From Trichodelitschia bisporula (taxonomy: Eukaryota), in the NCBI GenBank assembly GCA_010356995.1, contig ML996687.1, positions 125,803 to 189,802 on the forward strand: DNA of 64,000 nucleotides. Direction: 5' to 3'. Each line of letters begins with the position of its first letter. Positions within the stretch are counted from its first letter, which is position 1. The notes under the pieces were generated by a model. The model saw only the letters and a program-made list of their open reading frames with translations. It searched no databases and was not told the origin of the DNA. Position numbers and translations under genes: made by a program. Shown here piece by piece: positions 6,678-41,834 of this stretch.

Positions 6678-7054
6678 CTACTTCCTCCTCCCCTTCCCCA
6701 CCCCCCTCTTCGCCCGCCCCTCCTCCACAAACCCTCTCAACAATCCCTCCAACCCCTCATTCCTCCTCGCCAACAGTAGAACATCATCAACGTTCACCGT
6801 CGTCCTTCCAGCATGCTTCGCAAAAGCCTCGAGATCCCTAGCCGCAAACGCGATCTGCGTGTACACGAGCTCCGTCAGCGCGCCGATGAACTGCGGCGTC
6901 GCGTTGAAGGACGTGGATGCTGTGGTGCTGTCGATGATTTGGCCGATTGCGAACCAGAGGGCGGATTTTAGGCGCTGTTGGGGGTAAGTTGGTGGATTTA
7001 AGGAGGGTGTGGGGAGGCAGGTACTTCTTCGTCTTCGGGGTTGATGGGGGGCAT
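6678..7054 (-). CDS. MHF1: CENP-S/MHF1 histone-fold protein (intron 6975-7024)
   Basis: MPPINPEDEE|RLKSALWFAIGQI…NATPQFIGALTELV…DLEAFAKHAGRTTV..DDVLLLARRNEGL, characteristic of CENP-S. Confidence 0.92.
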
Positions 7055-7499
7055 TTTGTGGCTTGTAGTTCCTGTGGTTGTTTGCTGTAGCGAAGTTGTT
7101 GCTCCGCGATCGATATCTGGTATACATCCGTAGACGTGACGCGCAGCCAAGCCGGCCGGCTTGGCGACAGGGGAGTGAGTTGCGGCTTCCTTTTGTGGCG
7201 CACCTGTAAATGCGGGAGGATGCGCGATTATCGACTTCGACGTTTGACTTCGAATTTTCTCCAAACATTCGCAACCCCAACATCTCACTCTGACGGACTA
7301 CCACGAACATTCTTTCCACAAACGAAGACGTTACAGTCTGTACGCTACAAAACTGAATAACCTCTCTCTTACATCTATCCGGCATTTCTCGTATACACGA
7401 ATTGACACTTTGAAAGGCCCGCGGCTTCCCGCCACAGCGACGTGCAACTATCACAACCATCTCTGAGTACCTTCATCTCTAACTCAGTATAAAGGCGTC

Positions 7500-7949
7500 A
7501 TGTCCTGGGATGCGCCTCCCCCGCAGGGCCTCGCCAATGCGCTCGCCACCCTCAACACCTGGGGTGACAACTTCACGAGGAACACCTCGAGCGCCTTTGC
7601 CAACATGAGTGCGACGGGATACATCCGCCTGCTCGTCGCCATCTGCGGGTACCTCCTCCTGCGGCCATACCTCATCAAGCTCGGCGCGCATCTTCAAATG
7701 AAGTACCACAAGGAGGAGGAAGCACGTACGGAGGAAGAGCGCGCGGCTGCAGCGGCTGCGAACGAGCTACGTGGGGGACGGGTTGTGATTCCGGGCGAGG
7801 AGAGTGAGGATGAGGATGGTGGGTGGGGGCATGGGGCTAGAGTGCGGCAGAGGCGCCGGGTGAGGAAGATTGTGGAGGAGCATGAGCAGAAGCTGGCGGA
7901 GAAGGGGAACGAGAGTGATGCGGATATTGAGGAGTTGTTGGAGGAGTGA
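7500..7949 (+). CDS. PGA2: Protein-trafficking PGA2 family protein
   Basis: YIRLLVAICGYLLLRPYL TM motif, WG..AR.RQRR, acidic SDADIEELLE end; divergent from MHF1. Confidence 0.8.
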   Translation: MSWDAPPPQGLANALATLNTWGDNFTRNTSSAFANMSATGYIRLLVAICGYLLLRPYLIKLGAHLQMKYHKEEEARTEEERAAAAAANELRGGRVVIPGEESEDEDGGWGHGARVRQRRRVRKIVEEHEQKLAEKGNESDADIEELLEE

Positions 7950-8580
7950 GCGGTCATGGTGTGATGGTGGTATGCCGGCGAGTGGTATGAAGACTAGCCG
8001 GCGAGTGAACTTGATGGCAGGTGTTCGATTATGCATCGCTGTTACTTTGTGCTATCTGGTCTAGGAATGCGGTGTCGCCGTCTTTTCCCCACGGTCCGAT
8101 GATTGCGTATTACCGACTACAAGCTTCAACCCTAACTTACATCGGTCCCAGTGAACGTCCCCCAACCTCATCACATTCTCGTCGATATTCTAGACCGGCC
8201 ATGTACAGCAAGGAGCCCCTCAGCCACCTTGTCAGTATGCAGCATTCCCTACCACGGAATGCTCGCGCATCGCCTTCCAGAAAGTTCATCGCTGCACCGT
8301 CTCACCGACACCTTGCGTCAGCAGAACGTGCGCTAGCCCAGCCATGCGAACCGTAGTTGTCCTAGGGTCCTCATCGGGACCCGGGAGTTGCAGCTTCGCT
8401 ACGGCAGCTGTATGTGCAGAAGGTGACGCGTCCTTGCTTGGTATACGATATAAGATCAGAGGCCGCCCGGGAGTTCAGCTCACTGCAACCAACTCCAGTT
8501 GAACTCCCTTCATCACCCCACCTTGGGCTCCATCAACATTTCGAGTTATCCTCCTACGACTTGATATCACCTCCACAGTC

Positions 8581-9960
8581 ATGGCTTCCTCATGGCTCGT
8601 CCAGCTGCTCCTCGCAGCGCACGCTGCTGCGCATATGCAGCTGCAGATCCCGCTTCCCATTCGATCCCCGCTGTCCCCCAACAAGGGGCCGAATACAGAT
8701 TACGACTATCTAGATCCGCTTGACAAAACCGGGAGTAACTTCCCCTGCAAGGGCTATCAAACAGATGCGGCCCCCCCCACCGCCACTTACTCCGCCGGCG
8801 ACACCTACAACTTTACTCTCGCCGGCTCCGCCATGCACGGCGGCGGCTCGTGTCAGCTCAGCCTCTCCTACGATGGCGGGAAAAGCTTCCATGTCATCAA
8901 GAGCCTCATCGGCGGCTGCCCCTCCAGCCACGTCTACCCCTTCACCGTCCCGTCATACACCCCCTCCGGCAACGCCCTGTTTGCCTGGACCTGGCTCAAC
9001 AATATCGGGAACCGCGAGTTCTACATGGACTGTGCCTCCGTGCAGGTCAGCGGCGGGCAACCGGATGCAGCCCGCTTCAACGCGCTGCCTGGTATTTGGG
9101 TTGCGAATCTGGAGAGCGTGAACACGTGCACGACGACCGCGAATGTGGATCCTGTGTTTCCAGACCCGGGGCCGGAGGTTGTGTACGGTGGGGGTCTTGG
9201 ACCGGAGAGTCCAAAGTCCCCGGCGTACTGCGAGGTTGATGGTCGGGGGGCGAAGGCTGCGTCGGCGGGGGCGGAGGCTCCTGCGTCGACGGCGAAGATG
9301 GTTAAGCCTAAGCCGGCGGTGTTTCCGGAGTTTCTCACTACGATGGGTGAGAGGCCTACGGCGATGTTTCCGGAGTTTCTCACTACGATGGGTGAGGGGC
9401 CTACGGCGCCTGCGGCGGTTTCGACTTCGGCGGCGTCGTCGGTTGCTGCTGCGAGTTCTATGCCGATGCCGCCGATGGAGGGAATGGATCACGGTGGGAT
9501 GTCGGGGATGGACCACGGCGGCATGTCTGGGATGCATCACAGTGATATGCACGGGATGCATCACAGTGACATGGCAGGCATGGAAACTGGCTCCGAGCAG
9601 TCAGTGTCATACACCACGGTGGATACAACCACGACATGCACCTTGACGATCGGCAGCGCGAGTGGGACGGGAGCTGCGTCGAGTACATTCTCGACGGTAG
9701 TCGTCAGCAGCGCTGCTTCGCCCCCTCCGTCATCTGTTGCCTCTCCTCTTCCAACCGGAGCTTGCAACCCTGGGTCTTTCCTTTGCACCTCGCCTGCGGA
9801 GTTTCTCACCTGCGATCAGGACCCGCCTGGCCAGGGCGCGCCGTGGGACTGGAAGTACCCGAGGCAGGTTGCGGAGGGGATGATGTGTCTCCCTCACGTG
9901 GTGACGAGGGCGGATGGGAGCACGTATAGGGATGACCAGTATGTCAGAGCGACGACCTAA
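8581..9960 (+). CDS. AA11 lytic polysaccharide monooxygenase with Met/His-rich linker and C-terminal Cys-containing module
   Basis: Signal peptide ending AAA then His1 (HMQL); FPCKGY, MHGGGSCQLSLSYD, GGCP, FAWTW.N.IGNREFYMDCA, typical of AA11. Confidence 0.9.
   Translation: MASSWLVQLLLAAHAAAHMQLQIPLPIRSPLSPNKGPNTDYDYLDPLDKTGSNFPCKGYQTDAAPPTATYSAGDTYNFTLAGSAMHGGGSCQLSLSYDGGKSFHVIKSLIGGCPSSHVYPFTVPSYTPSGNALFAWTWLNNIGNREFYMDCASVQVSGGQPDAARFNALPGIWVANLESVNTCTTTANVDPVFPDPGPEVVYGGGLGPESPKSPAYCEVDGRGAKAASAGAEAPASTAKMVKPKPAVFPEFLTTMGERPTAMFPEFLTTMGEGPTAPAAVSTSAASSVAAASSMPMPPMEGMDHGGMSGMDHGGMSGMHHSDMHGMHHSDMAGMETGSEQSVSYTTVDTTTTCTLTIGSASGTGAASSTFSTVVVSSAASPPPSSVASPLPTGACNPGSFLCTSPAEFLTCDQDPPGQGAPWDWKYPRQVAEGMMCLPHVVTRADGSTYRDDQYVRATT
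9316..9405 (+). repeat. Two 45-nt tandem coding repeats (A.FPEFLTTMGE.PT)
   Basis: 9316-9360 and 9361-9405 differ at 2 positions. Confidence 0.95.
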
Positions 9961-10467
9961 TGACGGCCACAGTTGAGAGCCCGGTACAGTATGTGCGGAT
10001 GGTGGTGGGACAATGGCGAGGTAGGTCATTGGCTTTGCGTTGGCTTTGGGCATCTTGGTTTAATGATTTGAACGAATTGTACTGTAGAATGGGGAGAACG
10101 GCTGGATCTATCACTTGGGAAGGAAAAAGGGTTGCGGGAGTTGGTCTTCCTTGTACGTTATCTAGGGGTTTCGTCCCTCCTAGTTCAAATGCATCACATT
10201 CCCACCAAACCCGTTGTGCTACCCTACGAACGCATAATCCCGAGTTCATCCCCCGTTCTAGACGCACCTGCAGCACCCCCCCCGCCGCCGCCCGGGGCGA
10301 TTAGCTCCCGCACATGGCGCCGCATTAGTGGCCGCCGTCGCCACCAAAAACGCGGGGGGACGCGGAAGCTCCCACATCCCTCCTCACCGTAGCCTTGTCA
10401 ACCTCACCCCACCTCACCTCCCTCCATCCCATCCTCAACCTTCCCTCAACCCACCAAGCCCAAAAAA

Positions 10468-11473
10468 ATGGCCTGGACGCGCAAGAAAAGCATCGTCCTC
10501 CTCAGCATCCTCGTAAGCCCATCCCGCGAAATCCACTTCCTAGAACTAAATCAAGGCAGTGGCTTGCCCTCGCAACTGCCATCGGAGGGTAAGCCTTCCG
10601 CCCTCTAAAGCAAGGGTTGGGACTAATGAGCGAGGTACCTCCTGCACACGAGCACACACCTCCGCCTCCCCATCCCCACCGCCGTGTCCGCATTCACCCT
10701 CATCCTGCCCTCCATATCCGGGCTCGCACTCGCGTCTCTCAGCGAAGCGGCGCACCGCCTCGCGCTGCGTCTGCAGGGCGGGCACGGCACGCCGAGTCCG
10801 TGGCATCCGCTCGCTCTCCTCGTCCTCGTTATTTACAGCACGGTCCTCGCTACGCTCGGGGGGACGTATACGGGTGACATGGACTGCAGGCTGGAGGGCT
10901 GGTGGCAGAAAATGTACAGCGCGAAGGACGGGGCGGGGATACGGAGTATACAGGATGCGTTGGAGTGTTGCGGGTTGCGGAATACGGTGGATAGGCCCTG
11001 GCCGTTTCCGCGGGGGAAGGAGGTGGGGTTGGGGACGTGTCGGGAGATGACGGGGCGGAGTGTCGGGTGTCTTGAGGAGTGGGCGGGGCGGGAGAGGATG
11101 GTGGGGGGGTTGGTGGTGCTTGTTGCGTTTATGGTTGTTTTTTGGATGGTGAGTTTCAGGTCTCCCTTTCTCTTTGGGAGATTGATGTTTCTCCCTCGCT
11201 TTTGGGAGCGAAGCTGACGATTAGGCTGCTGTTGTGGTTGTTGGTGCGGAAGATTCGTCTTGGTTGAGGAGGTATCTGCGCGATGAGGAGGATTATATGG
11301 GGGAGGAGACGGTGAATGGTCGCGTTCGCCGGATTGAGGGGCAGTACCTTGATAACCCGGTCACGGAGGAGAATCCGTCTGAGGCTGGGAGCGCACAGGT
11401 TGGGGATGAGGACCGGACGCCGCTGGTTGTGCCGAGTCAATTAAGGGAGCCTGATGAACAGGTGCAGTGGTGA
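10468..11473 (+). CDS. Fungal tetraspanin Tsp3-like (introns 10513-10559, 10589-10634, 11149-11224)
   Basis: Four TM segments; large loop with C.L…W…KD..IR.IQDALECCG…PWPF, C…GC; splices restore one frame. Confidence 0.85.
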
Positions 11474-41398: not shown

Positions 41399-41834
41399 GA
41401 TTGTGCCACCTGGGGATTGAGGTGGGTGTGGTTGTGGTGTGTGATGGTGGTGTGTGGTGTGCGTGGTATGGGTGAAGTGGTTGTGGACTGAAGAGGTGTG
41501 GGCGAGAGGAAGGAAAGCAGAGCAGGGCAGACCGGGTTATATACCTTCTCACACTTGGTGCTAGACCAAGAAGAGTACTGTTGATGGAAGTGTTCTCACA
41601 GTAGAGTAGCAGTGGGAACGTATGCTGGAGGTGATCGGATGAAGAGGAGAATCAAGATGGGCGGCCGACTGCTTTTATAGCATTTGGAGCCTTTGGATGA
41701 CGAAGCTGAGTTCCGGGCCAAGCCAGGACAACGTGGAGAGTCGTAAGTGTACCGTACTTTGAATGGGTCCTGATGACGAAGCCCACGATGCTTTGGGGAT
41801 GGTGTTGCTTTAGCGAGGGATGCGTACCGTGGTT

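Follow-up and report, generated by a model that had tools for sequence, protein, structure and literature searches.

A CopA-like Met/His octapeptide array in the linker of a secreted fungal AA11 LPMO: a candidate tethered copper-binding tract

The linker of a secreted lytic polysaccharide monooxygenase (LPMO) of Trichodelitschia bisporula carries a Met/His-rich repeat recalling those of bacterial copper proteins. This raises the question of whether the repeat handles copper for the enzyme that bears it or is simply a stretch of linker. An earlier note, made from the sequence alone, had proposed that the enzyme carries its own copper reservoir or chaperone in cis. In what follows, the window is the whole 64,000-nucleotide stretch of DNA that was analysed and the query is the LPMO encoded in it (Table 1). 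Published work is cited by accession, from the available portions of each text.

Table 1. Position of the LPMO gene, its parts and its nearest neighbours in the window
Feature	Position	Strand	Basis or remark
CENP-S	6678-7100	-	intron joint 6974-7025
PGA2	7500-7949	+	neighbour
AA11 LPMO gene (P0001)	8581..9960	+	single open frame, 459 aa, secreted, no intron seen
Signal peptide, aa 1-17 (His becomes residue 1)	8581..8631	+	hydrophobic stretch; alignment of His18 with the first residue of 7P3U
AA11 catalytic domain, aa 18-217, AfAA11A-like (clade I)	8632..9231	+	homology and fold
Brace residues His18 and His86	nt 8632, 8836	+	alignment to AA11s
Asn140, Glu146, Tyr148 (second sphere/axial)	nt 8998, 9016, 9022	+	alignment to AA11s
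Ser/Ala/Thr/Gly/Pro-rich linker, aa 218-393 (176 aa), predicted disordered	9232..9759	+	pLDDT, composition
45-bp tandem duplication, 15-aa unit x2, recent, not Met/His-rich	9314..9408	+	96% match
Met/Pro residues leading into the tract, aa 294-298	9460..9474	+	translation
CopA-type octapeptide array, aa 299-334 (4x MxGMxHxx, then half a unit); putative site of Cu(I) binding	9475..9582	+	
Folded Cys-containing C-terminal module, diverged X278-like, putative chitin-binding	9760..9957	+	model, profile match
Weakly tetraspanin-like gene	about 10470-11470	+	two short introns near 10512-10634

The enzyme and the layout of its linker

Sequence and model together indicate that the gene product is an AA11 LPMO with a complete set of copper ligands, close to AfAA11A, the chitin-active clade I enzyme of Aspergillus fumigatus. 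The sole Pfam match of the 459-aa protein is to AA9 and lies below threshold. All three PDB sequence matches are AA11s, AfAA11A being represented by 7P3U (E 6e-60). The model of the catalytic domain superposes on this structure with a TM score (by target) of 0.93 and an rmsd of 1.4 Å over 200 columns, at 52% identity, and the five best Foldseek matches are AA11s as well (E 4.5e-25 to 1.6e-14), AA9s appearing only from 1.8e-6. The query shares with AfAA11A the His-brace and the Asn/Glu/Tyr second sphere (axial Tyr with Glu and Asn) defined for AA11s in PMC12186267, and mature H69, N123, E129 and Y131 do not vary across 104 aligned sequences. The match to 7P3U, the fold and these invariant residues bear out the family assignment made in the earlier note. 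The leader and the alignment with 7P3U suggest that the signal peptide is cleaved before His18, and by analogy with AfAA11A the substrate would be chitin (cf. PMC12186267). The best-matching named homologues are Dothideomycetes (among the best 120 of 379 matches).

AfAA11A is described as a single-domain protein (PMC9550227), to which the query adds the long linker with its array and an X278-like module. The order of catalytic domain, disordered linker and Cys-containing C-terminal module is shared with three-part AA11s such as Neurospora CWR-1, whose linker is of GS type and whose last part is X278 (PMC9550227). However, CWR-1 clusters apart from AfAA11A, the closest solved relative of the query (PMC9550227), and the linker of the query differs in having a Met/His array. 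No cwr-2-type partner was found among the neighbouring genes tested. In the AlphaFold2 model, the catalytic domain and the C-terminal module (pLDDT about 90) are confident, and pLDDT falls below 50 for most of mature residues 207-369 between them.

Pfam gave no match for the C-terminal module. An hhalign comparison with the X278-like C-terminal modules of homologues, which were picked by pattern and labelled X278-like in this analysis, gave a probability of 93.7 and an E of 2e-7 over 40 columns. Sorted by pattern, the X278-like module precedes a second module in 67 homologues and stands alone, as in the query, in 19. A single-sequence model of the module is poor (pLDDT 57), and its weak fold matches to small chitin-binding domains (Der p 23 and Avr4, Z 2.4-3.1) were discarded as evidence, with Z of 3.1 or less on a poor model. 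The neighbours tested encode CENP-S, PGA2, a weakly tetraspanin-like protein, a carboxylesterase, a GTPase-like protein, an aminotransferase and one frame without family; no copper-handling gene was found among them. Elsewhere in the window (about 41400-41515, minus strand), a 1716-aa frame includes a His/Thr-rich stretch with 11 Met+His in 40 aa; the true start may be downstream of it.

Translated in the frame of the plus-strand ORF, the tract at 9460-9582 gives aa 294-334, with the letters quoted in the earlier note. Two parts of that description are to be amended. The repeat is real, though instead of two plus two units of different types it forms a single continuous 8-residue array from Met299 (nt 9475). 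It does lie in the linker, not directly behind the catalytic domain but in mid-linker, 77 residues past Cys217 and about 60 residues ahead of the folded C-terminal module, which had been left unmentioned. Residues 294-335 (42 residues) include 12 Met, 7 His and 6 acidic residues and no Lys or Arg. The richest 40-aa window contains 18 Met+His, a count never reached when the protein was shuffled 20,000 times (maximum 13), and ranks first among the 250 open frames of at least 100 aa in the 64,000-nt window; the second-ranked (13 Met+His) is the antisense frame of the tract itself. An antisense ORF of 202 aa (8953-9561, minus strand) had no Pfam match and was regarded as a shadow frame. At 9480-9584, Tandem Repeats Finder reports 4.4 copies with a period of 24 bp (75% match). 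Across the 25.8-Mb genome, the back-translated pattern MxGMxHxxM occurs five times, four of them in the tract and the fifth isolated within a 93-aa frame, and a reversed control pattern has no occurrence; single MDHxxM matches elsewhere in the genome (12/14) are likewise isolated. A search of the ESM Atlas with aa 270-360 returned no usable feature match, all structural rows having TM below 0.5.

Likeness to CopA/CopB repeats, spread and constraint

The likeness to CopA/CopB repeats proposed in the earlier note was recovered at the protein and the DNA level. A protein search with aa 290-340 alone gave 18 non-self matches among 96 candidates of 252-804 aa; all 18 are CopA-family multicopper oxidases and none is named CueO. 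In a search of plasmid DNA, nine of the ten matches listed (224 records) fall within copA or copB. When the four full units are compared with 24 distinct CopA octamers, in whose profile columns 4-6 are fixed by the search anchor, 30 of 32 positions hold a residue seen at that position, both misfits being a change from Asp to His. CopA, a PcoA-type multicopper oxidase of Pseudomonas and Marinobacter, and CopB share with the tract the 8-residue period, the tandem M-x-G-M-D-H-x-x consensus and the variable positions, and in all of them the repeat is an insert inside a copper enzyme located outside the cytoplasm. They differ from the tract in that the host here is a fungal LPMO, with 4.5 copies, Asp replaced by His in two units and unrelated flanks. 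No sign of shared descent was found, the host being an AA11 and the flanks having neither protein nor DNA similarity. CopA octapeptide repeats bind copper. The tract may work like them, judging from its sequence, but its host protein is not a CopA. The Cop/Pco systems are described in PMC7558416.

The earlier note had also drawn a parallel with Ctr N-termini. An origin from Ctr finds no support in the genome, where a search with the tract missed all three Ctr loci and the Ctr N-termini differ from it, nor in Pfam, which detects no Ctr domain in the AA11 protein. One of these Ctr genes (L011:1268-1555, on G000:C17) has an N-terminal Met/His repeat of its own, with 15 Met+His in 30 aa and a unit unlike that of the AA11 tract.

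On the sequences compared, the array is lineage-specific and nearly all relatives are without it. MxGMxH is found in the query only, both among 253 AA11s (query included) and among the 242 scored out of 272 examined, 18 having no anchor motif and 12 a linker shorter than 40 aa. The runner-up has 10 Met+His per 40 aa (237 proteins with tails of at least 40 aa). The motif is absent from the 35 scorable of 64 metagenome loci (20 without anchor motif, 9 with fewer than 40 readable linker residues) and from the three AA11 paralogues of the genome. A six-frame scan of the 30 AA9-matching loci of the genome found no tract on the matched strand; their Met-containing windows count at most 6, save one of 11 opposite the matched strand. 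No tract-bearing orthologue was found in the best 120 of 379 matches, the best 150 of 1727, the 23/23 matches of the search with P0143 or the 64 metagenome loci, a sample that leans to clade I, so that rarer carriers may stand further down the lists. No close orthologue appeared among the matches listed and the metagenome loci, where the nearest relatives share about 59-61% of their catalytic-domain residues with the query. The three paralogues (L002, L003/L005 and L004/L006, on G000:C7, C4 and C9) have Ala/Ser/Gly-rich linkers and single Cys-containing C-terminal modules.

Met/His-rich linkers are rare in this sample: one other AA11 has two MDHxxM-like units, while MxGMxH itself stays with the query (1/242). 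Histidine-rich linkers are a different matter. A density of 5 or more His per 40 aa is seen in 7 of the 22 single-module proteins (query included), against 2/64, 0/13 and 5/143 in the other groups. A Fisher P of 1e-6 for this enrichment was rejected as non-independent and post hoc, because the carriers represent about three lineages, one of which is oversampled. In the clade of P0143, six of seven members (P0143, P0278, P0141, P0279, P0157 and P0280, not P0142) have a His/Asp-rich segment right after the catalytic domain, and that of P0280 has two tandem [DH]HxxM motifs. A Coniosporium pair has a similar stretch. The His-rich linkers outside the clade of the query are His/Asp-rich and mostly Met-poor, and come from two clades, one oversampled by targeted search. 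The P0143 clade consists mostly of single-module clade I AA11s, and as candidate metal-binding LPMO linkers its segments may be better conserved than the query tract. Five proteins of this clade also have a conserved Pro/Ile/Ala-rich motif further down the linker; P0157 is a fragment.

The position of the query differs between FastTree and the quick tree. In the careful tree it falls inside a 97/97 subgroup, with no firm place within it, and the His-rich label undergoes three changes, labels having been set by eye with P0158 and P0090, which have other His-rich stretches, labelled plain. A count of one change on the quick tree was rejected, as unlabelled rows were uncounted. Constrained trees outscore the quick free tree (p-AU 0.74) and a shared origin of the His-rich linkers is not rejected. 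There are hints from these sequences that metal-type linkers recur in the subgroup of the query. Outside this subgroup, the AA11 P0158, from a 90% cluster of six, has a poly-His stretch that directly precedes its C-terminal module and counts 10 His in 40 aa.

Comparison of the repeat copies gives signs that the array is old and kept at the protein level, since units 1 and 2 differ by 5 synonymous and 0 non-synonymous changes whereas the two copies of the 45-bp duplication, 50 bp upstream of the array, differ by 0 synonymous and 2 non-synonymous changes. Over the whole array, adjacent units give a pN/pS of 0.13. These signs are weakened by the controls, all repeats having been chosen by amino-acid identity, which favours a low pN/pS: the repeats of L004 and L008 are without non-synonymous change, and the synonymous bias is unspecific because the plain SAAAP linker repeat of paralogue L002 has a similar pN/pS (0.16). 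The positions of the replacements appear more specific to the array than pN/pS. Five of the six adjacent-unit replacements fall at positions 2, 7 and 8, which are also variable in CopA (P about 0.02), and none affects M1, M4 or H6 (P about 0.04), both P values being drawn from small post hoc counts with positions picked with the data in view.

Possible roles of the array

By analogy with known copper proteins, we favour, with a probability of about 0.5, the reading that the array works as a tethered sponge for Cu(I), of low affinity, with a role in copper recruitment or scavenging. The copper reservoir of the earlier note is upheld in part by the intact ligands of the AA11 host, the likeness to CopA/CopB and the signs of constraint; the absence of the tract from almost all homologues and from the three paralogues stands against it. 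The gain of a Met/His octapeptide array in the long disordered linker of a secreted AA11 would be specific to this lineage. The array would bind copper at multiple sites, with low affinity and a preference for Cu(I), as its 12 Met and 7 His and the precedents of CueO and MMH-CBM2 suggest, and would hold it close to the His-brace. It could help to draw Cu(I) from chelated pools in order to load or reload the apo-enzyme, and could mop up copper from damaged active sites, with less runaway formation of H2O2 by free copper as a result. It would be an accessory tuning element, catalysis being possible without it, because nearly all homologues are without it. In favour of the sponge reading, the tract rides on a copper enzyme with intact ligands, and His-rich linkers recur in single-module AA11s. 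Against it, the linker is prone to slippage, as its second, recent duplication of 45 bp indicates, the His-rich linkers of other clades are mostly poor in Met, and the neighbouring genes tested include none for copper handling.

Three published systems bear on this reading. The Met-rich accessory segment of E. coli CueO is poorly conserved and proposed to act in transient Cu(I) binding and recruitment or in maturation; it helps to recruit chelated Cu(I), and its deletion leaves copper resistance in vivo almost unchanged (PMC11494321). In CueO, however, the domain lies over the site of the substrate, which is Cu(I), whereas here copper is the cofactor and the tract sits on a far tether. The MMH (Met-Met-His) site on the CBM2 of ScLPMO10C and other actinobacterial AA10s prefers Cu(I) and protects these LPMOs, by copper scavenging and contact with the active site, from the self-reinforcing inactivation driven by copper freed from damaged enzymes; delivery of copper to apo-LPMO is mentioned as speculation only (PMC12703677). 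MMH-CBM2 and the tract both place Met/His in cis on an LPMO, with one such enzyme per genome, and it is by analogy that Cu(I) preference and protection are proposed for the tract. MMH-CBM2 is a single, folded, bacterial site kept across genera, whereas the tract, in a fungal AA11, is disordered, repeats its unit several times and is unconserved in the homologues seen; predicted disorder, the lack of a Pfam CBM2 match and the AA11 catalytic domain place the query outside the MMH-CBM2 group. The third system, PcoAA14A, is like the query a fungal LPMO with a disordered region, which binds about 0.5 Cu through His with a Kd of about 31 µM (10.1101/2025.11.04.686606). That tail is terminal, cationic, His/Cys-based and antifungal, whereas the tract is internal, Met-dominated and acidic.

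The earlier note did not recognise the architecture as characterised. This stands for the form: a CopA-like array within the disordered linker of a fungal AA11 appears to be undescribed, and is known from one lineage. No report of a Met/His repeat in the linker of an AA11 or other LPMO was found in the open-access literature, supplements excluded; the whole word 'metal' is absent from the main text of PMC8615602, a survey of LPMO disordered tails. It does not stand for the concept, since copper-binding LPMO appendages in cis have been known since 2025 from the AA10 CBM2 and the AA14 tail. Should the sponge reading be true, the tract would be a portable, 36-residue module for buffering or delivering Cu(I), a third natural design beside these two and the first such copper tract on an AA11 within the open-access literature searched. 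It would be easily grafted onto biomass-degrading LPMOs.

A lesser though real possibility is that the array is a generic spacer, a low-complexity repeat born by slippage and kept as flexible sequence, which would bind copper in vitro without biological effect. Disordered regions are common and variable in LPMOs (PMC8615602), and the array is missing in 241 of the 242 scored homologues, a second duplication occurred within the same linker and a plain linker repeat of a paralogue has an equal synonymous bias. However, Met and His are rare in such linkers (at most 5 per 40 aa in 217 of 237 tails), the replacements spare the Met/His columns and follow the CopA profile, and the motif is almost unique in the genome. 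If the tract is inert, it would illustrate how slippage in a linker can converge on a copper motif.

It is rather unlikely that the array goes beyond a sponge and acts as a cis metallochaperone, which would strip Cu(I) from environmental or cell-wall chelators, load or reload the His-brace, be convergent with the CopA octapeptide and mark a self-metallating class. In that case, the roughly three gains of His/Asp- or Met/His-rich linkers among clade I AA11s with a single module would define self-metallating LPMOs and offer a direct handle on how secreted LPMOs acquire and retain copper.

Active-site capping, proposed for MMH-CBM2 (PMC12703677) and for DUF-B of EcLPMO, is a doubtful analogue, in which His residues of the tract would ligate the catalytic copper when substrate is absent and damp off-pathway chemistry. 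The 77 flexible residues between catalytic domain and tract would allow it, and inter-domain His ligation has precedents in AA10s (PMC12703677; a prediction for one AA10 in PMC12767849). These precedents, however, are folded domains with a docking face whereas the tract is predicted to be disordered, and its many equivalent ligands fit a pool better than a single cap.

There is a similarly slim chance that the tract is a sacrificial antioxidant, whose Met residues would absorb H2O2-derived oxidants as methionine sulfoxide, metal binding being incidental. Methionine can serve as an oxidant sink and the linker has 16 Met within a 172-aa stretch. In addition, LPMOs are damaged by H2O2 when substrate is absent (PMC12186267, PMC12703677). 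This role leaves the fixed His column and the CopA register unexplained, and a secreted protein may have no reductase at hand to recycle the sulfoxide.

Origin of the array and its presence in the message

The array that we read as a copper sponge would probably have arisen by local tandem duplication, converging on the CopA motif. Convergence appears more likely than transfer because there is no flanking similarity and one of the three Ctr genes has a different Met/His repeat. That the array is instead a fragment of bacterial copA or copB inserted in the fungal linker, which would be compatible with the functional readings, is quite improbable. The Pseudomonas CopA P0122 has 18 residues identical to the tract, and the plasmid DNA matches are as strong as E 8e-11. 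Nevertheless, the 18-mer is one 8-mer repeated, DNA identity is merely 69-76% and limited to the repeat, no record spans 80% of the sequence searched, and on the protein side the flanks are unmatched. The Met/His repeat of the Ctr gene L011 also argues that tracts of this kind evolve within the fungus itself.

Two runs of one sample, both RNA by guess, contain the gene. They behave like RNA, since intron joints are seen in the flanking genes and depth between genes is near zero in run X1. Probable RNA contigs cover 8396-9349 and 9367-10165, with no joint within the gene. Contig 4 of run X1 (9367-10165) spans the tract without a mismatch, gap or joint, which makes it very probable that the mature message includes the tract. 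Depth is low in both runs, and contig depth is unfit for ranking expression. It is barely credible that the tract is an assembly error or an intron absent from the protein: although the X1 contigs break at 9349/9367 within the 45-bp repeat, none of the contigs listed bridges catalytic domain and tract, and both low-depth runs come from a single sample, the frame is unbroken from the signal peptide through the conserved C-terminal module, and the contig across the tract is free of differences and joints in a run that does show intron joints in neighbouring genes.

The repeat protein L008 (G000:C10:16608-19721, minus strand, 568-aa frame) is apparently secreted and has a Cys-rich N-terminal part followed by several His/Pro-rich repeats. 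Each of these repeats opens with a dibasic site, and the protein resembles a protease-processed repeat precursor.
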